From contig JAHLWP010000001.1 of assembly GCA_019057865.1 (NCBI GenBank), forward strand, positions 178,668 to 242,667: a stretch of DNA of 64,000 nucleotides. The letters run 5' to 3'. Each line of letters begins with the position of its first letter. Position 1 is the first letter of the stretch. The notes below the pieces were generated by a model. The model was not told the origin of the DNA. It made no database searches and saw nothing but the letters and a program-made list of their open reading frames with translations. This document shows positions 41,307 through 58,828 of this stretch, piece after piece. This DNA comes from Promethearchaeota archaeon (lineage in GTDB: Archaea > Asgardarchaeota > Lokiarchaeia > Sigyniarchaeales > SOKP01). Made by a program: the position numbers and the translations under genes.

Positions 41307-42665
41307 TTATTCCTCTTTTTTTAATTTGTGAATAGTTTCTTTTGCCTTTTCTGCAATCACATGAGTTTCTTTCTTAACAAATTCTTCTGTTTTTTGTCCT
41401 ACTCTTCCAAGTTGAACCATAATCCATTCAGGAGAACCCACTCCATTAAAATACTCCATCCATATATACATCATTAAACCAAGAAATCCACAATAAACAA
41501 TCCCCACAATAGGGAAAAATATTATCGAAAATTGTCCAATATACAAGGGAAGAAACAGAAATTGAATTAAAAATAGTGATAAACTAACTTTCCCATAATA
41601 GATAATCATTTTTATGAATTGATTAGATTTATTCTTTATATCAATGAAATAAAAACTCACTGCAATGATGAGAAGTGCAGCACCAAGATTATAAAACATA
41701 TTTGACATTGTATTTCTTACCATGAAATCTGGCATTCCAAGAAAGTGATAATAATCCTGTTGATTTGCAATTCTTAATAAATCTAAATGTAAATATTCTG
41801 ATAATTCTAATGTTTCTGGAGTTTGTAATCTCCAACCAAGTATGAACCCTGTTATTACTAGAATAATCCCACAATATGAAAATATACGAAATAAATGATA
41901 ATACGCTTCTTTTGTTCCTTTAATCATTGCATCATATAAATATTCACCAAATACTGTAGAAATAAAACAAATTGCTAGCCAAGGAAGAAATGGTACTTGA
42001 GGAAGAGGTGAAGTTATTAAAAAATGTAAGATCCAAAAACCGACATTAGTATCTTTATTATCAAAGATAAATTGTCTAATGATAGGTGAAATAATTATAA
42101 TTATAATACCAATCACTACACGAGGAATTTTCTTAATCTTTAGCACATAATAAGAAAAAATTTGTGAGAAGCCTATGAACACAAGAAAATTCCAGCCCCA
42201 AAAATTCATTGGAAAGGGAACAGATTCACCAGCAGTATATAAAGACATTGGATTAAAAAGCATACCTATTATAATGATAATAACTCCACGGGTTAAAATG
42301 CGATTACGTATAATTTTAGATGATAATTTGCCCTTCTTTCGTTTAATGCTGAAGATAACGCTAAGAGCAGAAAGGAAAACGAATAAGGAGGGACCCAATA
42401 TATCTAAAAAAGTAAAAAGAAGACCATATAAATACCTCCAATCATCATCAAACCATGCAAGTGCAGAATGTGCTAAAATTATAAAACATATAGCAAAACC
42501 CTTAACGAAGTCAATTGAAGAAATTCTTCTTGGTGAAGAAACATCCCTAATATCTTCGATAGGAATCTCTTCTTTTAAATATTCCACTAGTGGTGGTGTT
42601 TCTACGCTTTGAACTTTTTCGTTTGTAGATGACATTATGATTATCCTATTATAATTAAAACTCAA
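41307..42665 (-). CDS. HGSNAT/DUF1624-like transmembrane acyltransferase (paralog A)
   Basis: RRISSIDFVKGFAICFIILAH, LFVFLS, PFLPWL, YGKVSLSLF; about 11 TM helices. Confidence 0.8.
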   Translation of the reverse strand: MSFNYNRIIIMSSTNEKVQSVETPPLVEYLKEEIPIEDIRDVSSPRRISSIDFVKGFAICFIILAHSALAWFDDDWRYLYGLLFTFLDILGPSLFVFLSALSVIFSIKRKKGKLSSKIIRNRILTRGVIIIIIGMLFNPMSLYTAGESVPFPMNFWGWNFLVFIGFSQIFSYYVLKIKKIPRVVIGIIIIIISPIIRQFIFDNKDTNVGFWILHFLITSPLPQVPFLPWLAICFISTVFGEYLYDAMIKGTKEAYYHLFRIFSYCGIILVITGFILGWRLQTPETLELSEYLHLDLLRIANQQDYYHFLGMPDFMVRNTMSNMFYNLGAALLIIAVSFYFIDIKNKSNQFIKMIIYYGKVSLSLFLIQFLFLPLYIGQFSIIFFPIVGIVYCGFLGLMMYIWMEYFNGVGSPEWIMVQLGRVGQKTEEFVKKETHVIAEKAKETIHKLKKEE

Positions 42666-42713
42666 TTAAATAAAGATTAAAAAGAATTAAGAAGATATTA
42701 TTTTAATTCTTTA

Positions 42714-43988
42714 TTATTGTTGCTTATAAAAAATAATTAGCGAAAAATAAAGTAGAAGTAATAAAATTAAACCACATAAATTGAATGGAAAAAATTCATA
42801 GGTAAGGTAAAAGATACCCCATGATATTACAACTAATATAGCCAAGAAATGATGAACAAATCTAATTATATTATAAAATTTAAAATTCTTATTAATTAAG
42901 GTAAAAATAACTAAGAATGGTGTTAATACAATTAGATGATGGGGCCATGAATCAAAATAAACAATTAATGTAATGCTTATTCCTATTAAATATCCATCAA
43001 TTAATCTATTTGTCTGATTAGATGAAAGAATAAAATAATATAATATTGGAACCAAAAATAAAAAAATTATAATTATAAAAAGGAAAAAATTACTAATATT
43101 TAATTCCGTCAATTGAAAGAGAGTTATAAGATTTCTTGTAAGACTAAAAGATGCGTTGATATCTAATGTTCCTATAGTTGTGGCATATTTTCCGGTAAAA
43201 TTAACATCCATAAAACCTTCTAACAATTTAGGAGAAATTAAAAAATAAATACTAGAGATAAACAGTAGAATGATTGTACCAAAAAGTCTAATAAAAGCAA
43301 TTTTAAAATGAAAAACAAATTCCTTAGTATCTTTTGAGTAGTATAAAGGTATTAAAAAGGGAATTAGGAGAAGGAGTGTAGGTTTTATTAAGATTCCTAA
43401 CCCTAGCATTAAGCCACCAAAAAAATTGTTTTTATTTCCATTTTTTAAAAAACAGAAAACAGAATACAAGATAAAAAAAGAAACTAAAGTATTGATTTGC
43501 CCTAAAAAATAATTCATAAATTGAGGAAGCATTATCAATAATACAGAAAAATGATAGAGAACAGATTCATTCTCAGGTTTATTAAACGCATCCCTAAACT
43601 CCCTTAAGTCATAAGGTAGTTTATTATCATTGTTTAATCTTGGATATGATTGGATGATTTTATAAATAAGATAAATGATAGCAATGTTTAAAATGAAACT
43701 GAATATTTGAAAAATGATGTATCCTAATTCTAAGCCTAACATAGAGAAAGGAGTAAAAATATAAGCAGAGAGAGGAAAATACCTGAATGGAAAAAGATAT
43801 TGTGAAATATCGTATAAATTTGATATATCTGTTATTATAATCCGACCAGCTTTATAATAAGTTAAGAAATCGTTATTGTTTTTATTCATCAACGGATTAT
43901 CTAAGAAAAAAAAGAAAAACAAAGATGTAAATAGGTATAAAAGATTTACAAAGAATGCAAAAATAAAAAAGAGTTTGGTTTTTCTCAT
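42714..43988 (-). CDS. GT87/DUF2029-like GT-C membrane glycosyltransferase
   Basis: DFLTYYKAG, FRYFP, GQIN, IKP, SWPHH; multiple TM helices. Confidence 0.8.
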   Translation of the reverse strand: MRKTKLFFIFAFFVNLLYLFTSLFFFFFLDNPLMNKNNNDFLTYYKAGRIIITDISNLYDISQYLFPFRYFPLSAYIFTPFSMLGLELGYIIFQIFSFILNIAIIYLIYKIIQSYPRLNNDNKLPYDLREFRDAFNKPENESVLYHFSVLLIMLPQFMNYFLGQINTLVSFFILYSVFCFLKNGNKNNFFGGLMLGLGILIKPTLLLLIPFLIPLYYSKDTKEFVFHFKIAFIRLFGTIILLFISSIYFLISPKLLEGFMDVNFTGKYATTIGTLDINASFSLTRNLITLFQLTELNISNFFLFIIIIFLFLVPILYYFILSSNQTNRLIDGYLIGISITLIVYFDSWPHHLIVLTPFLVIFTLINKNFKFYNIIRFVHHFLAILVVISWGIFYLTYEFFPFNLCGLILLLLLYFSLIIFYKQQ

Positions 43989-44012
43989 TTAAAACGTCAT
44001 TTTAATTTATTA

Positions 44013-45392
44013 TTAATTTTCTTTGTCTTTGCTTAACTTTTTCATAAAATCTTCCATCTTTTTGACTCTTTCGCGCTTTTTGATTCTAGCATATACTTTT
44101 TTAGTAGTTTTCTTAACTGCTTCTCCTGATTTCTGTCCAATTCTCCCAAGTTGCACCATAAGATATTCAGGTGAACCCACTCCATTGGCATATTCCATCC
44201 AAATATACATTAAAATTCCTAAAAATCCTACATATGAAAGACCAATAATAAGATATAGCGCTACTCCAAATCGATCAATAAAAAGGGGTATAAATAAAAA
44301 ATGTAATAGAAATAGGCTTAAGGAGACTTTACCATAATATATTAATACATTAGTGAAATCGTTTGATTTCTTCTTAATATCAAGAAAATAAAAAAATATA
44401 GCAATTATAGTCAATGCAGCACCTTGGTTATAAAACATATTAGCACTGGTTCCTCTTATCAGAAATAATGGCATTCCAAGAATTTCAAAAAAATCTTGGT
44501 TATTAGCGACTTCTAATAAATGTAAATGAGGATATTCAGCGATCCCTCCTACAATAGTATCAGCAGTCATTAATTCAAAACCAAAATTGGGAAGTGGTGC
44601 AAAAATTCCTATTATGATGAAGGCAATACCCCAAACTAAAAATATTCGGAATAGTCCTATATAAGCATCATCTGTTCCTTTATTCATTGCTTCAAAAATA
44701 TATTCGCCAAAAATGGTAGAAATAAAACATATTGAAATCCATGGGACGAGTGTTAAATGAGGAGTGGGTGAAGTTATAATATAATGAAAGAAACTTATTA
44801 ATATATTTCCCGCTTCTTTACCTTCATAAAGAAATGCTCGAATATAAGGTGAACTAATAATAATTAATAAACCAATTACTATACGCCACTTCTTTTTAAG
44901 TTTTAATATATAGAAGGAAAATATTTGAGTGAATCCTATAAATGTAATAATATTCCAACCAAATATAATTACCACAGCTTCTCCTGTTTCTGGATCAATA
45001 CCTACTAAATTAGTAATCATTCCAATAATTATCATTACTATTCCTCGTGTAAAAATACGATTTCGGATTATCTTATTCGGTAAGACACCTTCTTTTCTTT
45101 TAATACTAAATATTACACTAAGTGCAGAGAGAAACACAAACAATGAGGGTCCAAGAATATCTAAAAAAGCAAATAAGAGTCCATAAATGTATCTAGATTC
45201 AGAATCAAGCCATCCTTGAGAAGTGTGTGCCAAAATTACAAAAATTATCGCAAATCCTTTAAGAAAATCTATAGAAGTTATACGTCTTGGAGAGGCATAA
45301 TCTCTTATATCCTCAAGGGGAATCTCTTGCTGTAAATAATTAAAAAGAGGTGGAGATTCAGTTTTTACTTCTACTTCCATTTGTGATGACAT
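44013..45392 (-). CDS. HGSNAT/DUF1624-like transmembrane acyltransferase (paralog B)
   Basis: RRITSIDFLKGFAIIFVILAH, LFVFLS, YGKVSLSLF; colinear with paralog A. Confidence 0.8.
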   Translation of the reverse strand: MSSQMEVEVKTESPPLFNYLQQEIPLEDIRDYASPRRITSIDFLKGFAIIFVILAHTSQGWLDSESRYIYGLLFAFLDILGPSLFVFLSALSVIFSIKRKEGVLPNKIIRNRIFTRGIVMIIIGMITNLVGIDPETGEAVVIIFGWNIITFIGFTQIFSFYILKLKKKWRIVIGLLIIISSPYIRAFLYEGKEAGNILISFFHYIITSPTPHLTLVPWISICFISTIFGEYIFEAMNKGTDDAYIGLFRIFLVWGIAFIIIGIFAPLPNFGFELMTADTIVGGIAEYPHLHLLEVANNQDFFEILGMPLFLIRGTSANMFYNQGAALTIIAIFFYFLDIKKKSNDFTNVLIYYGKVSLSLFLLHFLFIPLFIDRFGVALYLIIGLSYVGFLGILMYIWMEYANGVGSPEYLMVQLGRIGQKSGEAVKKTTKKVYARIKKRERVKKMEDFMKKLSKDKEN

Positions 45393-45500
45393 TTTTACTC
45401 AAATTATTATTAGTCTTTTTTACTTAAAAATTTAAAAAAAAATAAATTTGTTAAATTTTATCTTTATAATATTCCTTTTGAATTTTTATAGTTTTTCAAT

Positions 45501-45938
45501 ATGGATAAAGTAAAATTTCAAATCAAGCTTAAAAAAAATCTGGATTTCATAATTTTCGGATTCACTGGCTCAATATTACTTATATTATCTGAATTTTTTT
45601 ATTGGTTTTCTAATTATACATTATTAGACAGGTATGTGATTGCTACAAGTGTTGCAATTGAAGATTCTTTTCTTTATTTGTTCCCGTTTTTAAGTGGCAT
45701 CATTTGTTTAGCTGCAAGTATTATTGTTGTCTACGATTTTAAACTTAGAATTAAATCAGTAATATTATCATCAGTTGGTATAGGTTTCCTATTAATTTTT
45801 TTTATCGATTTTCTCTCTCAAGAAAGTGATTACATCTTGAGTTTAGGAGTTGGTTTTTATTTGTTTATAACCGGTTTTCTTTTAATTGTAATTAATGTAA
45901 TAAATATATTATTAACAAAAGAGAAAGAATCAGGATAA
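45501..45938 (+). CDS. 4-TM membrane protein
   Basis: Four hydrophobic segments. Confidence 0.65.
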   Translation: MDKVKFQIKLKKNLDFIIFGFTGSILLILSEFFYWFSNYTLLDRYVIATSVAIEDSFLYLFPFLSGIICLAASIIVVYDFKLRIKSVILSSVGIGFLLIFFIDFLSQESDYILSLGVGFYLFITGFLLIVINVINILLTKEKESG

Positions 45939-45953
45939 AATTTAACGATCAAT

Positions 45954-46838
45954 ATGGATAGTAATGAAAATTCAAATCAAAATGATAGTCAGGATGTAGA
46001 AGGAAGTTTTTACTACGCATTGGGTCATGAATTACGTAGAAAAATTATAAAGATAATTGGAGATAATGAGTTTTCTTCATTTACCCTGCTTAAAAAAGAA
46101 CTAGGAGTAAGTACAGGCACAATTTATCATCATTTGGATACTTTATCTGAATTAATCAAACAAAAGAAGGATAAAAAATATTATCTAAAAGAATTAGGTG
46201 TTCATGCTTATAATTCTTTAAAAGACGATATTAGATTAATTAGAGAGAAGGGTTTTGCAATTAGAGAATTTAAATCGCCTTTTTTAAGAAGATTAATGGT
46301 GATAACATCTAAAAGATTTATTCAATTTAAAAAAGAAGATAGAATATATGCAATTTTAATCTCAATCGGAATATTAATAATTGGGACAATATTAAGCCGA
46401 TTAAACCAATTTTACCCCCTATTACTATTTTTTATAGAACCTAATGAAAATAATTTAGAACTTAACTTTCAAATTTTATTAATTCTTAGTTTTCTTTTAA
46501 ATTTTATAATATATTTTATTATTATTGAAGGAATTTCTCGTCTATTTTATGACAAAAATGAAAATACGTTAAATTTTTTTATATCTTTTGCGATTGTATT
46601 TTTCCCTATGGTATTATACCTATTATTACATTATATTTTTGTTTATAGTGGAATTTTTGATATTTCTATTATTAATTTTTTAGATAAAGTCTTAATGATT
46701 ATTCTTCAAGTATGGTCGTTATGGCTATTATCCTATAGTATGAGTGTAAAGAAAGGGTTAAAAATCGAGACAACCTTGATTGTTTCTCTATTATTACACT
46801 ATGGTGGTTTTACGATTATTTTACTAACCTTGATTTAA
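45954..46838 (+). CDS. ArsR-type wHTH fused to a multi-TM (Yip1-like) domain
   Basis: ALGHELRRKII...SFTLLKKELGVSTGTIYHHLDTL, followed by about 5 TM helices. Confidence 0.75.
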   Translation: MDSNENSNQNDSQDVEGSFYYALGHELRRKIIKIIGDNEFSSFTLLKKELGVSTGTIYHHLDTLSELIKQKKDKKYYLKELGVHAYNSLKDDIRLIREKGFAIREFKSPFLRRLMVITSKRFIQFKKEDRIYAILISIGILIIGTILSRLNQFYPLLLFFIEPNENNLELNFQILLILSFLLNFIIYFIIIEGISRLFYDKNENTLNFFISFAIVFFPMVLYLLLHYIFVYSGIFDISIINFLDKVLMIILQVWSLWLLSYSMSVKKGLKIETTLIVSLLLHYGGFTIILLTLI

Positions 46839-48135
46839 GAACTTTAAAATTAAATTCTTCTAAAGTACTTAATATTTCATTCAACCTATTTTTTGACGAT
46901 CTGAAATCTTTTGTTTTTGTTGCGAGAAAACAAGAAAAGAATTTTGATTTATTAAATGAAATTGGAGGAGTAACAAGTTCAGAGATCATATTCAATAATT
47001 TTGGTAATAAGGACTCTTTGATTTCATTAATTGATTTAGATCCAGTATAAAATAGCTCTACTCTAGAGAAATTTGAATGGTTATGGTATTTTAATTTTAC
47101 AGGTTTCATTGAATTTAATTTTGAATTTATTATCAACTCAACTGGATTAATATCAATTACATTTCTAAGTCCTATATATGATGTTGTTAATCTTGGATTG
47201 ATTTCTAAAAAATGAACAGTTTTATTTTTTTTTTGTATGAAATCAATACCATAATACCCGCTAAATTTTGATAGATTAACTTTATTTAATATTTTAGATA
47301 AATAATTTAGTATTTCCTTTTGATCTTCTACTGGTGTATATCCTCCAAAATATTCAGATTTAATTTTAAGGTTTGTTATTTCTACATTTTGTGAATTAAT
47401 ACTTAAAAAAATAGGTGTAGCGATTTGAGAATTTAAATTGGATGAACTACCAATTAAAGAAATACTTAGATCTCTTCCGTCAATAAATTCTTGAAGTATG
47501 TAAGTTCTATTATATTCAAAACTATTATCCAAACTATGAAAGAACTCTCTTATTTGATTTTCACTTCCAAAATAATAAATTGATTCTGCACCAACCCCAT
47601 CTTCAGGTTTAATAATAATAGGACGTTTTAATTCCTTAAATTTTTGTATAATGAATTCTAAATCAAATTTTTTATTCCTTGAAGGTATTAGATATGTTTT
47701 TGGAGTATTTATTTTATTTTTTTTGAAAAAACTATAAGTCATTATTTTTGAAGTACCTAATTTAATACCTTCTAAATCCACACTTAATATTATCTTTTTA
47801 TAATTTTTAGCAATTTCAGTTAACTCATATAAGATATTCGAAGATTCTGGAGCAATTATAAAAATACATTTACAATTTCTAACTTGATTCTTAAAAATAT
47901 TAATGTAGTTATCTTTAGCATCAACTTTATGAATTATATCCGCTTCCAATAAATTTGATAAGAAGTAGATTCGGTAATCTAATATTGTACTAATAATAAA
48001 ATCCATCGCCTTAAAATCTGCGATAATAGATCTTAACATACCAAATCCTTCACAAAATAAGGAAGAGGGTATATCAACTTGATTAAAACCACCACCGGAT
48101 ACAAATTCGAAGATAAAAACATAATTTTTATTCAT
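46816..48135 (-). CDS. mfnD: ATP-grasp ligase, tyramine--L-glutamate ligase (MfnD)-like
   Basis: FEFVSGGG, EGFGML, IAPE, IKPEDGVG, QEFIDG, EINPRLTTSY. Confidence 0.75.
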   Translation of the reverse strand: MNKNYVFIFEFVSGGGFNQVDIPSSLFCEGFGMLRSIIADFKAMDFIISTILDYRIYFLSNLLEADIIHKVDAKDNYINIFKNQVRNCKCIFIIAPESSNILYELTEIAKNYKKIILSVDLEGIKLGTSKIMTYSFFKKNKINTPKTYLIPSRNKKFDLEFIIQKFKELKRPIIIKPEDGVGAESIYYFGSENQIREFFHSLDNSFEYNRTYILQEFIDGRDLSISLIGSSSNLNSQIATPIFLSINSQNVEITNLKIKSEYFGGYTPVEDQKEILNYLSKILNKVNLSKFSGYYGIDFIQKKNKTVHFLEINPRLTTSYIGLRNVIDINPVELIINSKLNSMKPVKLKYHNHSNFSRVELFYTGSKSINEIKESLLPKLLNMISELVTPPISFNKSKFFSCFLATKTKDFRSSKNRLNEILSTLEEFNFKVLKSRLVK

Positions 48136-48310
48136 TTTTTATGTACTTTAATAATTTTTAGAGTTCTCTACATCATGTTTTCAATTATTCTAAATTTTTT
48201 TTATTTATACACTTTCTACTTATTTTTTTCTTTTAAATATATTCACTAACTATTTTTGATAATAATTTGATTTTTTTATTTATATAGATCTATAATAAAA
48301 AAAGATCATT

Positions 48311-48826
48311 ATGCTAAGTGATATAAAATTAAAGGTTAAAGATGCTTTTAAAGGTGATTTCGGTAAGAGTATTGCCCGAATTGATCCAAAAATAGTTTCA
48401 GAGAGTAATATCGATGTTGGTGATACAATTTGTATTTATAATGAATCTAAAAAAAAATTTACAGCTGCAGTAGTATTTCCCAGTGATCCTAGAGATGAGG
48501 GTACAAATATAATCAGGATTGATGCATTATTAAGAAGAAATCTAAAGGCAACTCTCGAAGATATCGTAAAGATTAAAAAGACAAAAAATCATCTTGCTCA
48601 ACAAGTTTCTTTTGCGGGATATAAAAAAGGAATAATTTTAAAAAATCCAGATGGTTTAGTAAAAACTTTAAAAGATCGAGTAGTTTCAAAAGGAGATATC
48701 TTTACTTTTCGATGTGAAAATAAGAAAGTTGATTTAATAGTTATAAATCATACACCACAAACTGAAGTAGTGAAAATCCATAATGGAACTAATATTTTCT
48801 GCCAAAAACAGGCATATTATCTTTAA
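48311..48826 (+). CDS. Stand-alone Cdc48/VAT N-domain protein (no AAA domains)
   Basis: LKVKDAFKGDFGKSIARID, IIRIDALLRRNL..TLEDIVKI, AQQVSF, VINHTP..VVKI. The ORF ends where the D1 AAA domain would begin. Confidence 0.85.
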   Translation: MLSDIKLKVKDAFKGDFGKSIARIDPKIVSESNIDVGDTICIYNESKKKFTAAVVFPSDPRDEGTNIIRIDALLRRNLKATLEDIVKIKKTKNHLAQQVSFAGYKKGIILKNPDGLVKTLKDRVVSKGDIFTFRCENKKVDLIVINHTPQTEVVKIHNGTNIFCQKQAYYL

Positions 48827-48829
48827 TTT

Positions 48830-49930
48830 GTGAGGGGCAAAATGATGATGTCATTAAAAAGTAAAGAATTTCAAGTAAATCGATATATCACACTAAGACT
48901 AGAAAATGAAGAAACTGTTGTATATGTTAATGATGAGAAATTTATCCAATGTAAATATCTATTATTAAATATTCCTAAAGAAAAAATTGAAGAATATGAG
49001 AATATAGAATCTATTGATGAAGTAGCAGAGAATTTGGATAAATCGTTAGAATATGAAAATATGATAAATTTTTATTTTCCTCCTGAACTCGAATTTTGGG
49101 GACATTGTTCAAATTTGCAAGTATGGGTGGAGAATGATTATAATTCCTGCTTACTTCATAGAAATTTAGCATTTCCCTTATTAAAAAAGTTGACGGAATT
49201 AGGGGATCCTTTAGCTAGAATTGTTTTCAAAGAAGAGATCGCTAAAAGGTTCTCTAGTGGCTTTCAATCTGTAATAAATTATCTAGTCAATGAAAATTAT
49301 TTGTATTATTTAAATCCAGAGGAGATCAAATGCTTATTAGAAGATTATAGAGATTCCCTTGATAACTCATACTGTCAATCTATACTTAGAAAAGCAGCAA
49401 GATATTGGTCTATTGAAGGATTGAATTATTTTAGGAATAACAAATATAATAAGGCGATAAAATTTTTCAAGCAATCACTTCAACTCTTTCCAAATGATGT
49501 AAAGACATTGAATTATCTTGGAGATGTGTTAAGAGATAAGGGAAATATTGATAAATCAATTGAAATCTATAATAAAGCTATTAATATAGATAAAAACTAC
49601 TCAAATGGGTATATTAATTTATCAAGAGCATATTTTCAAATAGGCGATTATGATAAAACAATTAATATCTGCAATTTAGCTTTAATGATCAATCTAAATC
49701 TAGTTGAATTAGAGTCTATAAGCTATTATTTATATGAGTCTTACTATAATAAAGGTAAATTCAAAGAAATAAGAAAAGCACGCAGGACAATCAATATAAT
49801 AAAAAGAAAAACAAGAAAAGAATTAGGATTTACATGGTACAATAGAATTGATGATATTCCTGAGAGAATAGGTCACATTCTTTTGTATATTTTTATTTTT
49901 GTAATTTTCTTAGTTTTATTTTTTGTTTAA
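48830..49930 (+). CDS. Lokiarchaeal expanded N-terminal domain + TPR repeats + C-terminal TM anchor
   Basis: N-domain EFQVNRYITLRLEN...EFWGHCSNLQVWVEN...LAFPLLKKL; about 3 TPRs; hydrophobic tail ILLYIFIFVIFLVLFFV. Confidence 0.75.
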   Translation: MRGKMMMSLKSKEFQVNRYITLRLENEETVVYVNDEKFIQCKYLLLNIPKEKIEEYENIESIDEVAENLDKSLEYENMINFYFPPELEFWGHCSNLQVWVENDYNSCLLHRNLAFPLLKKLTELGDPLARIVFKEEIAKRFSSGFQSVINYLVNENYLYYLNPEEIKCLLEDYRDSLDNSYCQSILRKAARYWSIEGLNYFRNNKYNKAIKFFKQSLQLFPNDVKTLNYLGDVLRDKGNIDKSIEIYNKAINIDKNYSNGYINLSRAYFQIGDYDKTINICNLALMINLNLVELESISYYLYESYYNKGKFKEIRKARRTINIIKRKTRKELGFTWYNRIDDIPERIGHILLYIFIFVIFLVLFFV

Positions 49931-49944
49931 ATATATGGAAAAAA

Positions 49945-52900
49945 ATGATAAATAAAAATAATAAAAGAAAGAAGGAAGAGAAAATGAGTAATATTATTCC
50001 AAAACAATATCAAAACGACGCTAAAATTATTGGAGAGCAAGAAAATTCTCATGATTATTTAGATATTTGGGATGTGAATCCTTCATATAAGGATATTAAT
50101 TCGAGATTTTCCATACTTAAAGGAATATCATTAACAATTATTCTTTTTTTTTTAGCTATTTTAACATATCAATTAACTACTAATATTTATATTTCAATCG
50201 GATTAACAATTTTTACATTGCTCTTTTTCATATTTTGTTTCTCTGATAATTTCTTTAATCTCAGAAATTTATACTATTATCTATTCCATAAATTTATTTC
50301 TATAAATCCTTTTGAGAATTTATCTTTTTGCACAATTAGACAGGAACCTACTTTTCTTTTAATTTTAAACAAAAAGGATGCCATATCTACAGCAATGCGA
50401 ATATTCAAAATTGAAACACTTCCAGAAAATGTTTATCCCACGTTGAATCAATTTCTCAAGGCATTAAATAAAGGTCAAATATCATATACATACCAAGTGG
50501 TTCAAAGTCCGTATTTAGATTTCTCTGAACCATCCTCTGAAAATAAATTTCAAGTGGAATCAATTAGATCTCAAAATTTAAGTTCTATTGATTCATTACA
50601 TACCTCAATTTATTTTTGTGTGTATTATAATATAAATGGGATTTTATCTAGCAATAAAATAGATAAACTAATAGAAATTGTTACTGATCTTTCTAATGAA
50701 TTCAAATCAAATTTTAGTGCAAACTTTCACCATACAAAAATCTCATTATTAGATGGAATTGATTTAATAAATGCAATAAGAACATTCTTCTGTAAATCAT
50801 CCATACAACCTGCCGATAAAGAGGAAGATCTTTTTATAGCTAAAAGAAATTTGCCTATAGTATTATTCAAAACAGGATTTGTTGCTTTTCTTATAATAAC
50901 GCTCTCATATTTATTATTAAGTCTAACTTTTCCATTAGGATACATTATACTCATTAATTTTCTAATGGAATTGCTTATAATCTTTATTTGGTGGAGAGAA
51001 ATTCTTTATTATTTTTCGAAATCGCGGTTATCACATAATATGGAAATAACTCAAATAAATCCATTTCAAGACGTTGAGTTCTATCGATTAAAGAAATTTA
51101 ATGATTTAATTTTTACATATGTTGACAACCAATTACTATTGGCTTCTAAAATATTTAACCTCAAATTTGCCGCTCAGCCAACTTTAACATATTTTGATAA
51201 ATTTATAAGGGGAATTGATAAATATAAGATTTCTTTTAATTACAATTTACAAGTTATCCCTATATCTGCTAATCTCTTTTCAAAAGAATGTCTTAAATTA
51301 TTGAACGATAAAACAGAAGAAAGCCTTGAAGGAATATTATATACTACTCTAGATAAAGCTTCTTCAAAAAAAGTTAAGCATCCAGAAGTTGAATTTGAAA
51401 AATGGTTAGATATGAGATCTGGTATTTGGAATACAATGTTAACGATATCAACTTCTTCCTATTTATTTACAAACGATTTAACATATAAAAATTTCAATGA
51501 ATTAGAAAACCAGTTATCCACAAATGCAAAAATTTTAAAAAGAACATTTGAAGATAATTTCTTAAATTATAAGCTTGTTGGATTAAAAAACCAACTCTTA
51601 ATTTCAGGATTTTTAAGCGAATGTCTTAAAAATCATAACTATAGATTGAATGGATCTCATTTAAATTATGTGTACTTCCAAGGTAAAAGTCTAATAGAGC
51701 TTGCGAAGATAGTTAATGAATTTAAAAAGGGAATAGATACGAGAATTGCTGCTGAATTCAATACACCTTTACAATTAAATAATTTCATAACAATTGGAAA
51801 TACAATCAATACGGAGTTCTTAGATGAAGAAGTTCCTTTTGGATTGACTTTTGACCAATTGCAACAATTACTTATAACAAATGGTTTTTCTTACAGTCGA
51901 GAACAAGCAAAAATGAAAATTGTGACTGAGCTTGTCAAAGCAAATAAATCCTGTTTAATTTTTGATTATTCAGGAAAGTGGTCAAAATTAATTAATTTTT
52001 TCAAAGATTCTCAATATAATGGAAATATTTTACATTTCAAGTTGGGAAGTTCATTTAGCATCGATCTAAAGCACTCGGGTATGAAATATGATAAAAATAA
52101 TATTGATTATTTAAATTTATTCTTTGATACGTTTGCTTTAGCCTTTAAAGCAGAAAAAAGATATGTCGATCTTCTAAAAGACTCTTTTTTAAGACAGGAT
52201 GAGTTTGATGTATCATCAATTTCCTTAGATCTTGAAATGAAAAATAAATGGGAAAGAGATTACAAAACTAATAATTTAATAGCAATATTTAGGGATTTTA
52301 GAAATCAGAGTCAAATTTTTTCTAATTTAACACTTGATCATGAGGATGAGATTAATCCAATTGACTTTTTGAGAAATGATAAGTCAATTATTATCGATCT
52401 TTCAATATTAAAAGACTTAGAGCAAAAAACTTTTGTTACATTTGTAATTATTTCAAAACTAATTCATTACATCCAAAATTCTACTGATTATTATAAATAA
52501 GTCATTTTTATTCCTAATATTGATATGTTTTTTGATTCTTTTTTTATTGATAATAACTATAATACCACAAATTACGGTAAAATAAGCAAATTTTTAGAGC
52601 CCTTCCTTGAATGTGGATTTGGGTTAATTTGCTCAGCAAATCAAATCAGATATCTTCATCCTAATGTCTTCAGTTTTTTACATAATATCATAACTTTTAA
52701 AGCAACTGATACACGAGATATAGCTGTATTGAAAAATCAAATGAATTTACAAGAATTACAGGGTACCGGATATTATAGCTCTAAAAGGAATAATACTTAC
52801 CAAATTAATTATTTAATGAATATGCGTGAAAATGAAGTAATAATTAAAAGATCAGATATTTATCAACCTTTTCCAGGAGTTGTTGACTTGAACGAACTTA

Positions 52901-53832
52901 AAGGTATTGAGCCTCTTCAATATGAAAAAATTTTAATTTATATGGAAAAACAAGGGTATAAATTAAAATTAGCTGAAAGAAGAATAACAGAGAAAGCTAA
53001 AAAAACCCTATTTGAAAAAGATTTAGGTCTGTATATTGACTTTATTGATGAGATTATCAACTTTCTAAATGCTGTGAAAACTGTTGATAAAGTAGGAGGA
53101 TTATACCGCCAAAAACTTAAAAGTGAACTTTCAAAGTTCATAGCTTCAAAAGCTTCTAAAAAAGTAAAAAATAAAAAGCAGATAAGCGAATTACGAGATG
53201 ATTTGTTCCATATTCTTGTTAAACACGGATATTTAATTGAAACTCATCCTAACAAAGCAGGTGGTTCAGAATCCATTAGGACTTGTTATGAAGTGGGATC
53301 AAAATACAATGAAGCTTTGAATGATTACTTTCAAACAGAAGGAGATTATTTACCCAATGTTTCTGTGGATATTATTGAGGGAAATTCTGATTCAGATTCA
53401 AATATTCTTGATTATTTTCGGAAAGAAACCAAGAAGGAAATTATAAATCAAGAAAAGTTCGATGAGATATTACTTGAACAATGTAGTAAAATGTTATGGA
53501 AATTATATCAAATGTATTCTGCTAATAACAAAAACGAATTTGAAAAATCTCTTAAAATTGGAGAAAATTTCATTAAAGACTTCTTAATAAATCTACATCA
53601 ATCTTATCTCCTAAAAAATGATATTTCTATACCTGAGATTAATGATCCTGAAATATTTTTTAATCATTTAGCCAAAAATAATCTATTTCCTTTAACTAAA
53701 GATGAACTTAGAGAATATTTTAAAAAATCCAAAGAAATTATATCAAATACCACTGATATTGAAAAAACTGCTAAAAATCTTCATGATTTATTATTTGAAT
53801 TTTATACTAAATTTCAATCCTATATAAGCTAA
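49945..53832 (+). pseudogene. Large membrane HerA/VirB4-like (pseudo)ATPase interrupted by one in-frame TAA (52498-52500)
   Basis: ORFs 49945-52500 and 52525-53832 are in frame: DYYK*VIFIPNIDMFF. Two TM pairs, then HerA-like landmarks LLITNG (degenerate Walker A), CLIFDYSGKW, SIIIDLS, GFGLICSANQ and NEVIIKR...PF. Confidence 0.65.
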
Positions 53833-54828: not shown

Positions 54829-55632
54829 TTGAGAAATATGATTTTTGATATCTTTAATTCTCTTATTGAGGGAATTGCTGTTAGCATTATAATAAGTATT
54901 GGAGCATTCTTTCTGGGTAGATTAAAGTCGATTATAAATCAATTGAAGATACGGCGTTTAAAACAATTCTTCGGGAAAAGTGCAAACAATCCAGACCGAA
55001 TTAAAATTAATTTAATAATACCTGTGCTTCATCCACAGGAAGACTTGATAGATGGAAAAGTAATATATCATTATAAGAAACCTTTCGATAATGAAATAAA
55101 AACTTGGTCGGGACCCGAAAATGTTATGGCCGTAGCGGATATCCAAGCAGCTGCAAGTTTGATATCTTTACTTGAACCTTTAACCCCACAATCCATAGAA
55201 CCAATTACAGACGAGGACTCGCTGGATTGTAAGGATGGGTGTCTTATTTGCATTGGTTCACCCCTATCCAATTCAAAAGCAAAGCTTTTGATGAAAGATT
55301 TCGAACCTGTGAGTTGGGTTAAAACACCAAAAGATCCATATAATCAGCGGTTACAATTAAAAAGCGGAAAGGAATTTACTAGTACTCAAACAGAAGATTA
55401 CGGTCTGATATTGAAAATAGAGAATAAGTATAGTGAAGGTGATTTTGCTTTCATTATAGGTGGCATTACTCACTTCGGCACGACAGGGGCAGCACGTTAT
55501 TTGAAGAAAAACTGGAAAAAATTAAATAATAAAGCTGATAGAAATCCTTTTATTTGCGTGATTCAGGTAGATAAGGAAAACATGGAGCCCACAAAGGAAG
55601 TTTATTTTGAGACAATAGAAAAGAGCTTTTGA
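54829..55632 (+). CDS. N-terminally membrane-anchored alpha/beta domain protein
   Basis: One N-terminal TM helix; LICIGSPLSN, DYGLILK, FIIGGITHFGTTGAARYL. GC is higher than in host genes. Confidence 0.65.
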   Translation: MRNMIFDIFNSLIEGIAVSIIISIGAFFLGRLKSIINQLKIRRLKQFFGKSANNPDRIKINLIIPVLHPQEDLIDGKVIYHYKKPFDNEIKTWSGPENVMAVADIQAAASLISLLEPLTPQSIEPITDEDSLDCKDGCLICIGSPLSNSKAKLLMKDFEPVSWVKTPKDPYNQRLQLKSGKEFTSTQTEDYGLILKIENKYSEGDFAFIIGGITHFGTTGAARYLKKNWKKLNNKADRNPFICVIQVDKENMEPTKEVYFETIEKSF

Positions 55633-55985
55633 AGAAGTTATTGGCAGCAAATTCGGATATTATAGGCGCAGCAATTGTATCATTAGAAGGTATACCTATT
55701 GCGTCTACTCTTCCCCAAGATATAGATGAGATATTATTTGCCGGAATGTGCACTGCAATACAAAGCATTTCAAAACAAGCTGTTAAAGAACTTCATAGAG
55801 GGCAACTGAAACGCATTTTAATAGAGGGGGTAAATGAATTAATTATAGTATCTAAAGCTGGAGAAAATGCTATATTAGTAGTTGCTACAACAAATGATGC
55901 AAATTTAAATTCAATACCATTTAGTCTATTTAAAGACCATACTGATTCATCTAAAGATAAAGGAGCTCCTGAAATTATTCTCTAA
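55629..55985 (+). CDS. Roadblock/LC7 (MglB-like) protein
   Basis: GAAIVSLEGIPIASTLP...AVKELHRGQLKRILIEG...AGENAILVV. TTG start overlaps the upstream TGA. Confidence 0.9.
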   Translation: MKKLLAANSDIIGAAIVSLEGIPIASTLPQDIDEILFAGMCTAIQSISKQAVKELHRGQLKRILIEGVNELIIVSKAGENAILVVATTNDANLNSIPFSLFKDHTDSSKDKGAPEIIL

Positions 55986-57033: not shown

Positions 57034-57143
57034 AATTATTGCATTGAGATAAATAGATATGATTGTCTAAAATGATCAAAGAATAATTATCTATCAGTGA
57101 TTAAATACATATCTATCTTCGGTGATCGGTAGGAGCCATGATT

Positions 57144-58373
57144 TCAAGCCTCGCATAAGGGAGGATCTTTACCTTTAAAATAAGCAAGATGTTCAAAATC
57201 AAATAATTCACTTCTCTGTGCCTCAGAACGCTTTATAGGTTCAAATCTCATTAGCGGATGGTGAACTTTCAACATCATTAAGACGGGATTATTCTGAACA
57301 TCTCGCACAGCAAAAAAATAGTAATCAGTACCGTTGTGATGATTGAATACTTGGTTAGCATTACCGAGAAGGATTTGAACGATATTATTCTGAGTATCTT
57401 TTACCTTTTCTTTTGCTTCGAGTAGTCCTAATTCTCGCATAACTTCTTTTAAAAGGTCAGAAGATCGAACTAAGCTGACAAATCCATCAATATTTAATTG
57501 CTCAAAGATCCTTCTTTTTACTTGAAATTGGATGGTGCTCATTCTAATCCCAAGCCTGTTACAGATTGAGAATATATTAACAACTTCATTGTAAGAACAC
57601 AAAGCAGAAATAGATGTTACTAATCCTGCAATGACATCGTCTTTAGTATTTTTAATTTGCTCCCATAGTTTATGCATAATTTTTTTAGATTGGTAGAAGA
57701 AGGGCATTCCTAATTCGAACGATTCGGTAATTTCGAGTATTTTGTGGGTAATGTATTCTTGCCTATTTCGCTCCTGATATTCAGGGATAAATTTTAAAAC
57801 TTGTAATAAGAAATCATTAAATTCTTTCTTTGAGATCTTTGAGACTTCTAATAATTTTAATCGCCTAATGCAAATATTCTCAAGCCTTAAAGTGTAGTAG
57901 AGTACAATAGGGACTAATTTTTCGATATTTCTATACTTTGTTCCAGGTCGTAATTGCTTCCATATATTCTTAACCCTCTTAAATACAATTCTTTGATATG
58001 ATCTGGGTAAATTCAAGCAATTAAATATCCTTTTTATCTCAATTTTGACTTTTTCTTGAATTGTTTTAAACCTATCTTTTATTGAATGAATCAAGTTCAA
58101 ATATTCAAGCTTCACAGAATTGGGAGATTTTTGCCGTTCTCCTTTGGTCCCTATTTGAGTCGTTCCTAAGATGGCATATTGAAGGATATCGTCATTATAA
58201 TGTCGATCATATTGTAGTTTTTGTATTTCTAAGACAATTCCACAATCTCCACAGACATAACCCTCAATAGTTTCTTGGATATTAGCAGAACTGCATAGAT
58301 CACATGAAACCGAAGAGAAATGTGGGGAAATGGAACTTGAAATATTGTTATTAATCACCATTTTTTTGATCAC
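57144..58373 (-). CDS. Divergent TFIIB/TFB-like protein (zinc ribbon + cyclin-fold repeats + C-terminal extension)
   Basis: CDLC...GYVCGDCGIV; EIKRIFNCLNLP; repeat 2 ending ICNRLGIRMSTI. Confidence 0.7.
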   Translation of the reverse strand: MIKKMVINNNISSSISPHFSSVSCDLCSSANIQETIEGYVCGDCGIVLEIQKLQYDRHYNDDILQYAILGTTQIGTKGERQKSPNSVKLEYLNLIHSIKDRFKTIQEKVKIEIKRIFNCLNLPRSYQRIVFKRVKNIWKQLRPGTKYRNIEKLVPIVLYYTLRLENICIRRLKLLEVSKISKKEFNDFLLQVLKFIPEYQERNRQEYITHKILEITESFELGMPFFYQSKKIMHKLWEQIKNTKDDVIAGLVTSISALCSYNEVVNIFSICNRLGIRMSTIQFQVKRRIFEQLNIDGFVSLVRSSDLLKEVMRELGLLEAKEKVKDTQNNIVQILLGNANQVFNHHNGTDYYFFAVRDVQNNPVLMMLKVHHPLMRFEPIKRSEAQRSELFDFEHLAYFKGKDPPLCEA

Positions 58374-58443
58374 TATTTTTATTACTAAGAAATAGTTGGG
58401 AAGGAGTTTGCTTTTTAAATGTTTCTTTTAAAAATTCAATATC

Positions 58444-58464
58444 TGAGAAGAAGCCCTCTTCTCA
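58444..58464. promoter_or_regulatory. Perfect 8-bp inverted repeat upstream of the TFB-like gene
   Basis: TGAGAAGA-AGCCC-TCTTCTCA. Confidence 0.35.
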
Positions 58465-58828
58465 AGTTTTACAAGATTGGATTCTACAAAATTGTATAAG
58501 AATTCACTCGAGAAATTATTTTGGATAGCACTTAATTTCAATAACTTCTTGGAAAATTGAGTAAAGATCAATTATGTTAAAATGCGTCTCAGTTTAAGTT
58601 ACAAAATTAATATTATATTATCGATTTTTAGGATTTGGCATAATAGATAAAAATCTAATTTTTACTAAAATTTTTTTTTATTTATATATATTGAAGTTAT
58701 ATTTTTAAGATAAATTAAAAAAGGAAGGATTATATCAAGAGCGTTTCAATTTTGTTAAAAGTCAATTTAGAAAATTTGATTTTAAACATGATAATTACGA
58801 AGAGCATAAATACAAATCCCACTAATCT

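Follow-up and report, generated by a model that had tools for sequence, protein, structure and literature searches.

VirB4-type ATPases such as TrwK consist of a VirB4-type N-terminal domain followed by a C-terminal domain of the FtsK/HerA fold, the latter with canonical Walker A (GxxGxGK[ST]) and Walker B (hhhhDE) motifs. HerA proteins place a HAS barrel ahead of the core, and the Cdc48/VAT/p97 proteins combine an N-domain of two subdomains with the D1 and D2 AAA rings. The locus described here, at positions 48311–53832 of a 64,000-nucleotide stretch from a Promethearchaeota archaeon (the window, to which coordinates refer unless a contig is named), brings together a Cdc48-type N-domain protein (gene 1), a TPR protein (gene 2) and a large membrane protein with a HerA/VirB4-like core (gene 3). 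A first-pass annotation made from the sequence alone had described three co-oriented, tightly spaced genes, and the open reading frame (ORF) coordinates confirm this, with spacers of 3 nt between genes 1 and 2 and 14 nt between genes 2 and 3. Asgard archaea are the closest known archaeal relatives of eukaryotes; to our knowledge, their membrane machines and mobile elements are almost unstudied.

The cassette formed by these genes is accessory, duplicated and island-borne. The reading favored here, with moderate confidence, is that the triad would be one copy of an accessory cassette organized around a non-catalytic, VirB4-like membrane platform, and that this copy is carried on an island, truncated and probably recently inactivated. 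The features on which the comparison is based are as follows.

48311–48826, + strand: gene 1, stand-alone Cdc48/VAT N-domain protein, 171 aa (Pfam)
48830–49930, + strand: gene 2, 366 aa, with N-domain (residues 1–175), TPRs (190–290) and C-terminal transmembrane helix (343–366) (Pfam, hydropathy); an ATG a few codons in is an alternative start
49945–53832, + strand: gene 3, predicted VirB4-like pseudo-ATPase membrane protein, 1295 codons, one TAA (ORFs, orthologs)
49945–52500, + strand: ORF, first part of gene 3, 851 aa
52525–53832, + strand: ORF, second part of gene 3, 435 aa
50101–50256, + strand: transmembrane hairpin 1, residues 53–104 (hydropathy)
50257–50799, + strand: module 1 soluble domain, residues ~105–285 (homologous to the module 2 domain)
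50848–51006, + strand: transmembrane hairpin 2, residues 302–354 (hydropathy)
51058–51738, + strand: module 2 soluble domain, VirB4 N-terminal domain-like, residues ~372–598 (AlphaFold2, Foldseek, VIA)
51748–52926, + strand: RecA-like core, FtsK/HerA superfamily, residues ~602–994 (AlphaFold2, Foldseek, VIA)
51868–51906, + strand: Walker A relic LLITNGFSYSREQ (conserved across orthologs)
52498–52500, + strand: in-frame TAA in place of invariant Lys852 (AAA in both closest copies)
52501–52524, + strand: Walker B relic VIFIPNID, residues 853–860 (invariant Pro in the Asp position)
53032–53829, + strand: C-terminal helical extension, residues 1030–1295, 266 aa (no PDB or Pfam sequence match)

Architecture, fold and motifs of gene 3

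From its N to its C terminus, gene 3 would comprise two successive modules, each made of a transmembrane hairpin and a domain resembling the VirB4 N-domain, then a core of the FtsK/HerA fold and a helical C-terminal extension. The hairpins are apparent from hydropathy, by which the protein is predicted to be membrane-anchored, and the two modules are homologous to each other (hhalign probability 98.5%, E 2e-15), in agreement with the earlier description of two hairpins each followed by a similar soluble segment. The core was modeled with AlphaFold2 on residues 565–1035, using a 38-sequence alignment (pLDDT 79, pTM 0.83). A Foldseek run with this model retrieved HerA (4d2i, E 1e-11), many SIR2-HerA and DUF4297-HerA chains, TdpAB and the C-domain of DndH, and comparison with VIA gave Z scores of 25.5 for the DndH C-domain (7es4, TM 0.54/0.66), 24.7 for HerA, 24.3 for VirB4 (4ag6; root-mean-square deviation 4.3, 328 aligned) and ~20 for TrwB. 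The HerA/VirB4-like fold proposed for this region is thus upheld by both methods, the leading VIA matches lying at Z 24–25.5.

The second module points more specifically to VirB4. With an AlphaFold2 model of residues 352–612 (pLDDT 81), the top 13 Foldseek matches are all TrwK/VirB4 of the R388 system, and VIA aligns the module with residues ~212–404 of TrwK, the part of the VirB4 N-domain that lies just ahead of the ATPase domain, at Z 15.0, 11.2 and 10.8, the next unrelated fold reaching Z 6.4. HerA chains are absent from the structure matches of this module, a weak HAS-like element not having been specifically sought. Because the N-module matches TrwK/VirB4 only, gene 3 is regarded as VirB4-like rather than HerA-like; on these models, it is a VirB4-like build in which the N-module is duplicated and a transmembrane hairpin stands before each copy. 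The hairpins are likened to the one that, as we take it, precedes the N-domain in VirB3–VirB4 fusions.

The order of an N-domain and an FtsK/HerA-fold C-terminal domain is that of VirB4 and TrwK (Z up to 15 and 24.3, respectively), but gene 3 differs from them in the duplication of the hairpin and N-domain module, in its additional C-terminal extension of 266 aa, in the conserved non-catalytic residues that its family has in place of canonical Walker motifs, and in having no sequence-level match to them (Pfam CagE_TrbE_VirB, AAA_10 and DUF87; NCBIfam; PDB profile). HerA (SIR2-HerA, DUF4297-HerA) and the DndH C-domain provide the best Foldseek and VIA matches of the core. In contrast to HerA, however, a VirB4-N-like domain occupies the place of the HAS barrel, and in contrast to both HerA and DndH, gene 3 is predicted to be anchored in the membrane and lacks the catalytic motifs as well as a NurA, SIR2 or Dnd partner.

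Both Walker motifs had been read as degenerate, and this is confirmed. In the core model, the Walker A relic LLITNGFSYSRE (residues 642–653) lies on the expected strand–loop–helix and VIFIPNID on the expected strand, and neither is canonical. The Walker A position reads LLITNGxxxxRE, with a Glu in the position of the GK[ST] lysine and a nearly invariant Arg before it, and at the Walker B position the reading is hhhhPxhD, an invariant Pro taking the place of the expected Asp. Both relics are conserved in every aligned relative of gene 3, and a canonical Walker A (G.{4}GK[ST]) is absent from all 144 library representatives of the family. Since the relics are kept in all aligned relatives, the loss of the catalytic motifs is, by alignment, ancestral to the family, and this copy is not simply a decayed one. 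More generally, the family illustrates how a VirB4-type secretion ATPase was turned, long ago and under selection, into a conserved, non-catalytic membrane protein that carries its N-module twice.

Relatives of gene 3 are few and, where named, exclusively Asgard. Among 5.8 billion proteins, 59 were found, nearly all of them uninterrupted and 1230–1320 aa long, and the names given are those of Promethearchaeota, Thor-, Hod- and Hermodarchaeota. An exhaustive search of 1.84 billion cluster representatives with the gene 3 profile returned only 177 proteins at E up to 1e-3, and of 40 genomes sampled from the GTDB family, 29 were found to carry it, in one to three copies each. On the evidence of these searches, the family is Asgard-restricted and ~1270–1300 aa in length. 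No description of it was found in the literature on Asgard VirB4, on Asgard mobile elements and HerA, or on archaeal VirB4 with a degenerate Walker A.

Searches with gene 3 came back empty from Pfam and NCBIfam at E up to 1 and also from PADLOC, and the intact paralog on another contig of the same genome (C22, described below) has no PHROG match. Against PDB sequences, the family profile gives no match for the full protein and only noise (E>1) for the C-terminal 266 aa, and the C-terminal extensions of 38 members give only scattered weak matches in Pfam. A winged helix around residues 1094–1118 is possible, judged by inspection; weak HTH_34/PadR-like winged-helix matches are found directly after the core in remote relatives.

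A set of remote relatives of the core (P0136–P0205; E 1e-8 to 1e-42; 520–1400 aa) has no GK[ST], its P-loop reading GG-T-x3-R. Several of these proteins keep hhhhDE/DD at the Walker B position, with a winged-helix match directly after the core. This pattern points to a wider, unnamed group of proteins with an altered P-loop.

Duplication, selection and the in-frame stop

The triad and the sequence immediately upstream of it form a unit that occurs twice in the genome:

48183–53839, + strand: duplicated 5.66-kb cassette unit, upstream region and genes 1–3
48183–48310, + strand: upstream non-coding stretch, copied together with the cassette

Over 5664 columns, the unit is 94.5% identical in nucleotide sequence to contig C22 of the same genome (G000:C22:58003–63665), where gene 3 is intact (1295 aa) and an HExxH gene comes next. 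The upstream stretch probably holds a promoter; an AT-rich, TATA-like TTTATATA is seen by eye ~25 nt 5' of the gene 1 ATG. A third stand-alone Cdc48 N-domain gene in the genome (G000:C13:1687–2484, locus L077; 93% protein identity) has two broken pieces of the gene 2 N-domain behind it, with an acyl-CoA dehydrogenase gene adjoining, and looks like the remainder of a decayed third cassette.

The window copy of gene 3 is interrupted by a single TAA that separates two ORFs in the same frame, which together give the 1295 codons originally counted through the stop. Lys852 is invariant in the alignment, and its conversion from AAA to TAA requires one A-to-T change within a run of A. Reassignment of TAA as a sense codon was considered and rejected: 29 of the 39 long frames in the window end in TAA, those of genes 1–3 included.

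Between the window and C22 cassettes, the ratio of non-synonymous to synonymous substitution (dN/dS) of gene 3 is 0.16 overall, 0.18 upstream and 0.11 downstream of the TAA, and the values for genes 1 and 2 are 0.35 and 0.65. With a close congener (G008) as outgroup, 66 synonymous and 47 non-synonymous changes fall on the window lineage of gene 3 (~0.17), and the stop alone among these changes hits an invariant column. As far as such comparisons reach, they show gene 3 to be under purifying selection with no relaxation. Given the low dN/dS and the fact that only the stop falls on an invariant column, the nonsense change is very recent, or an error.

An alternative explanation, which we consider unlikely, is that the TAA does not represent a true inactivation and instead reflects a mistake of the assembly or of its consensus, a minority allele, or the production of two polypeptides (residues 1–851 and a product restarting at the ATG at 52525). 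The frame does remain open for 443 codons past the TAA with a dN/dS of 0.11 against the paralog, an ATG lies 8 codons past the TAA, and a paralog of 94.5% identity could confuse consensus calling. A low dN/dS is, however, also expected for a very recent mutation, and the TAA is a clean substitution in an A-run rather than an indel. The break falls directly before the Walker-B-like core strand, inside the RecA-like fold, and the Met at 861 is not conserved, being M, L, A, I or V in orthologs. No full-length ortholog is broken at the TAA position; the only other broken copy seen (G192:C4) contains six in-frame stops and is therefore decayed.

As a separate observation, 30 of the 47 window-specific amino-acid changes, as defined against the C22 and G008 copies, fall within residues 305–571, which cover transmembrane hairpin 2 and module 2. 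Such clustering is suggestive of a patch acquired by recombination with another donor, and less so of divergence spread evenly along the gene.

Genes 1 and 2, related loci and a proposed model for the cassette

Gene 1 matches CDC48_N (2e-20) and CDC48_2 (7e-5) in Pfam and contains both N-subdomains, the double-psi barrel and the beta-clam, as do Cdc48, VAT and p97. It differs from these proteins in being free-standing, without D1 or D2 AAA rings, and in being rare. No AAA domain follows the N-domain, and TIGR01243 is matched at positions 2–162 of 733 only, so that the initial view of a Cdc48/VAT N-domain without an AAA ring is borne out. The same genome encodes four full-length Cdc48-like genes, and gene 1 is 42–43% identical to the N-domains of two full-length Cdc48 genes. 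Within the GTDB family, a stand-alone gene of this type was found in 9 of 135 genomes, and these all belong to the genus of the window.

Gene 2 contains TPR repeats at residues 190–290 (Pfam TPR_2, 4e-18) and a hydrophobic C-terminus at 343–366. The TPRs of the first-pass annotation therefore stand, whereas its C-terminal membrane anchor is backed by the hydropathy of this copy and is not clearly kept in orthologs. The N-domain (48830–49354, residues 1–175) has invariant C41, H92, C93 and H110 and the motif EFWGHCSN; the four residues are a possible metal site. It belongs to no known family, matches only unnamed Promethearchaeota clusters in the ESM Atlas, and is Asgard-specific. At least four further paralogs of this domain, with other C-terminal parts, occur in the genome (contigs C28, C33, C59 and C3). 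In the congener G008, one gene 2-like ORF (C76, locus L042, 11199–12239, minus strand) opens with ~25 residues matching the beginning of the Cdc48 N-domain gene (KECFKNNFGKHIARIDPKI), and looks as if a deletion had joined what was left of gene 1 to gene 2.

The genomic contexts of gene 3 were compared by tabulating ORFs around its homologs at 36 loci. In the first type of context (type I, 23 of the 36 loci), gene 3 is part of a stable operon in which a DEAD helicase gene (on the opposite strand) and a gene for an HhH membrane protein are followed by genes designated c2 and c1, gene 3, a small ORF and c4. In the second (type II), a gene 2-like gene and gene 3 are followed by an HExxH gene of 231 aa (at some loci), a live ATPase of 631–690 aa and a giant protein of 1250–1670 aa. 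In the live ATPase, GxxGxGK[ST] is intact, and the protein matches DUF87 (3.6e-7) and the HerA models of PADLOC (7e-15). A close paralogy between the live ATPase and gene 3 families is not supported (hhalign E 0.047, probability 1%), the aligned stretch being the Walker B region. In a quick maximum-likelihood tree, the type II genes form one clade (SH-aLRT 100), inside which the genes linked to a Cdc48 N-domain form a sub-clade (97).

The window locus shares the gene 3 family, its motif relics and its internal duplication with the relatives of both types. It differs from them in belonging to the sub-clade linked to Cdc48N and TPR genes, in lacking the live ATPase, giant protein and HExxH genes, and in its nonsense change. 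A tblastn search of the whole window detected no remains of HExxH, live ATPase or giant genes, and a live ATPase gene is not adjacent to the C22 copy either; two live ATPases of 718 aa are encoded in the same genome, at the contig ends of C51 and C70, each adjoining the start of a giant gene. Related loci thus usually pair gene 3 with a live DUF87/HerA-type ATPase (GxxGxGK[ST]) and a giant protein, and the window is a locus without both, so that the first-pass proposal of a scaffold built from ATPase-less modules is not supported.

Linkage of all three genes is retained in some relatives. The full triad recurs in G008 (contig C59; gene 3 identity 92%), on a contig of GCA_016839655 (60%) and in G192 (C60), with triads at about 54–59% identity, and a Cdc48N–gene 3 pair at 53% identity has a gene 2-like gene on the opposite strand. 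Other orthologs of gene 3, at 45–62% identity, are without gene 1, gene 2 or both. The linkage, which the first pass had proposed to check in related genomes, accordingly holds for some relatives and fails for many others and, by gene neighborhood and phylogeny, the triad is confined to one sub-clade. Of 15 stand-alone Cdc48N loci, ~9–11 adjoin parts of the type II module.

Based on these comparisons, gene 3 would most likely assemble in the membrane into an oligomeric platform that does not hydrolyse ATP, much as VirB4 is placed at the base of the inner-membrane complex of type IV secretion systems (T4SS). Its P-loop lysine and Walker B aspartate have long been replaced by conserved non-catalytic residues, which would leave no canonical ATP hydrolysis. 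In complete modules, the platform would work with the separately encoded live DUF87/HerA-type ATPase and the giant protein, an arrangement that, if correct, would amount to a new kind of DNA/protein-transfer or element-propagation apparatus in archaea. The Cdc48 N-domain and TPR proteins would serve as lineage-specific adaptors through which a partner or substrate reaches the platform, one lineage having apparently recruited a free Cdc48 N-domain to the gene 3 family. The earlier idea of a domesticated conjugation component survives in its ancestry, which the fold of the N-module sharpens from conjugation machinery to a VirB4-like protein, but not in the word domesticated, as the cassette is accessory, multi-copy and island-borne.

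Several observations weigh against this platform model. VirB4, HerA and DndH are tied as matches of the core, and the assignment to VirB4 depends on the fold of the N-module. VirB6, VirB8, a VirD4/coupling protein, a relaxase and a pilin were not recognised by Pfam among the scanned neighbors in the window; many neighbors in related loci are without any family. The live ATPase and giant genes are not adjacent to gene 3 in either the window or the C22 copy, and gene 3 may act without them. A physical link among the three proteins is suggested by gene neighborhood only; the complex prediction for gene 1 with gene 2 (residues 1–340; score 0.00) gave no verdict. Stand-alone Cdc48N lies beside unrelated genes in 4 of the 15 loci and is thus not an obligate partner. 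Finally, a dN/dS of ~0.16–0.2 for gene 3 shows that the protein matters, and not what it does.

The presence of a Cdc48 N-domain had also led to the suggestion of an adaptor complex like that of endoplasmic-reticulum-associated degradation (ERAD). In this scheme, a self-contained, ATPase-less scaffold would use the Cdc48N and TPR proteins as adaptors through which host Cdc48 or its substrates reach the dead VirB4-like platform, for the extraction or quality control of membrane proteins. The N-domain of gene 1 is a bona fide one with both subdomains, its identity to host N-domains and the four full-length Cdc48-like host genes are compatible with such a role, the spacers between the genes measure 3 and 14 nt, further triads are seen at 92%, 60% and ~55–59% identity, and even the intact C22 copy has no adjacent live ATPase. 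The Cdc48 N-domain is, however, the sole basis for the suggestion, and it goes with gene 3 in a single sub-clade of what is an accessory module, Cdc48N being absent from the surroundings of most gene 3 relatives. ERAD employs a membrane ubiquitin ligase or a Derlin-type channel together with Cdc48 cofactors, but no such Pfam family is present in the cassette or its neighbors, among which no Derlin, Hrd1, UBX or ubiquitin-like genes were seen. The island location, copy-number variation and decay are ill-suited to housekeeping quality control, and we know of no way in which a lone N-domain would recruit a Cdc48 ring. Because the stand-alone gene is rare and patchy (9 of 135 family genomes), the ERAD-like scheme is disfavored and must be judged very unlikely.

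The least probable of the explanations considered, and one that we would put forward only as speculation, is that the triad is a working, ATPase-independent membrane docking complex. Here, the free Cdc48 N-domain would mimic or hijack host Cdc48 and bring the unfoldase or its substrates to a secretion-type platform, as a device of a selfish element or of defence. Such a complex, if real, would connect the eukaryote-like Cdc48 pathway of Asgard archaea with an archaeal scaffold derived from a T4SS.

The island and its neighboring genes

The start of the cassette unit coincides with a break in gene order. The left flank (42000–48183) keeps its synteny in 30 of 30 congeners, and synteny with the congeners G223 and G008 stops at 48183 and 48360. 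In these two closest congeners, another conserved run of genes comes after the ATP-grasp gene; in the present genome this run is found at C9:3004–15420. The right end of the window (64000) is the contig end. Since synteny breaks at 48183 and the run resumes on C9, the cassette and the remaining 10 kb of the window form a strain-specific island, the left edge of which coincides exactly with that of the duplicated unit. No tRNA that would mark an integration site is present in 40000–64000. Contig C9 itself begins within a large repetitive ORF of at least 960 aa (G000:C9:1–3003).

An island of this kind might also be one of anti-virus or anti-plasmid defence, the cassette being part of it, the dead VirB4-like protein acting in the membrane to sense incoming DNA-transfer machinery or to serve as a decoy for it, with Cdc48N and TPR proteins as sensor or adaptor parts. 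The island includes genes near the cassette that had been taken for nucleases in the first pass, and MmeI/Eco57I-type restriction–modification genes occur at two loci unrelated to each other, in one case two genes after gene 3 (L079, 7510–10743) and in the other beside the live ATPase on C51 of this genome (L081, 2808–5915). The match of the live partner ATPase to the PADLOC HerA models (7e-15), the patchy distribution and the variable copy number would likewise fit. Neighborhood on its own is nonetheless weak evidence, and the cassette contains no effector domain. PADLOC has no match for genes 1–3, the live ATPase being the only one to match in related loci, and PHROG has no model for gene 1 or gene 3 and only matches of unassigned function in the TPR region of gene 2. 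The type I relatives, moreover, sit in a stable syntenic operon, unlike defence genes. A role in defence is accordingly regarded as rather improbable.

Returning to the platform model, the window module would be a truncated one and the intact paralogous cassette on C22 would carry the function. Because the module is truncated, lies on an island and has a stop in place of Lys852, the window copy is probably inactive or has only just become so, and it is the intact copy of the other contig that deserves study.

Two further features of the island were noted. A 1.6-kb unit at 57112–58706 contains an ORF of 409 aa (57144–58373, minus strand) and is present in at least four copies in the genome (C23 and C56 at 95% and C22 and C36 at 91% nucleotide identity), as well as in congeners; it lies ~3 kb 3' of both cassette copies. 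Pfam, PHROG and PADLOC gave nothing for it and its ends show no convincing inverted repeats; it may be an unclassified insertion element. Also inside the island, at 55629–55985, is a Roadblock/LC7-domain gene (Pfam 5.6e-15), the start of which overlaps the end of a 267-aa ORF without a family.

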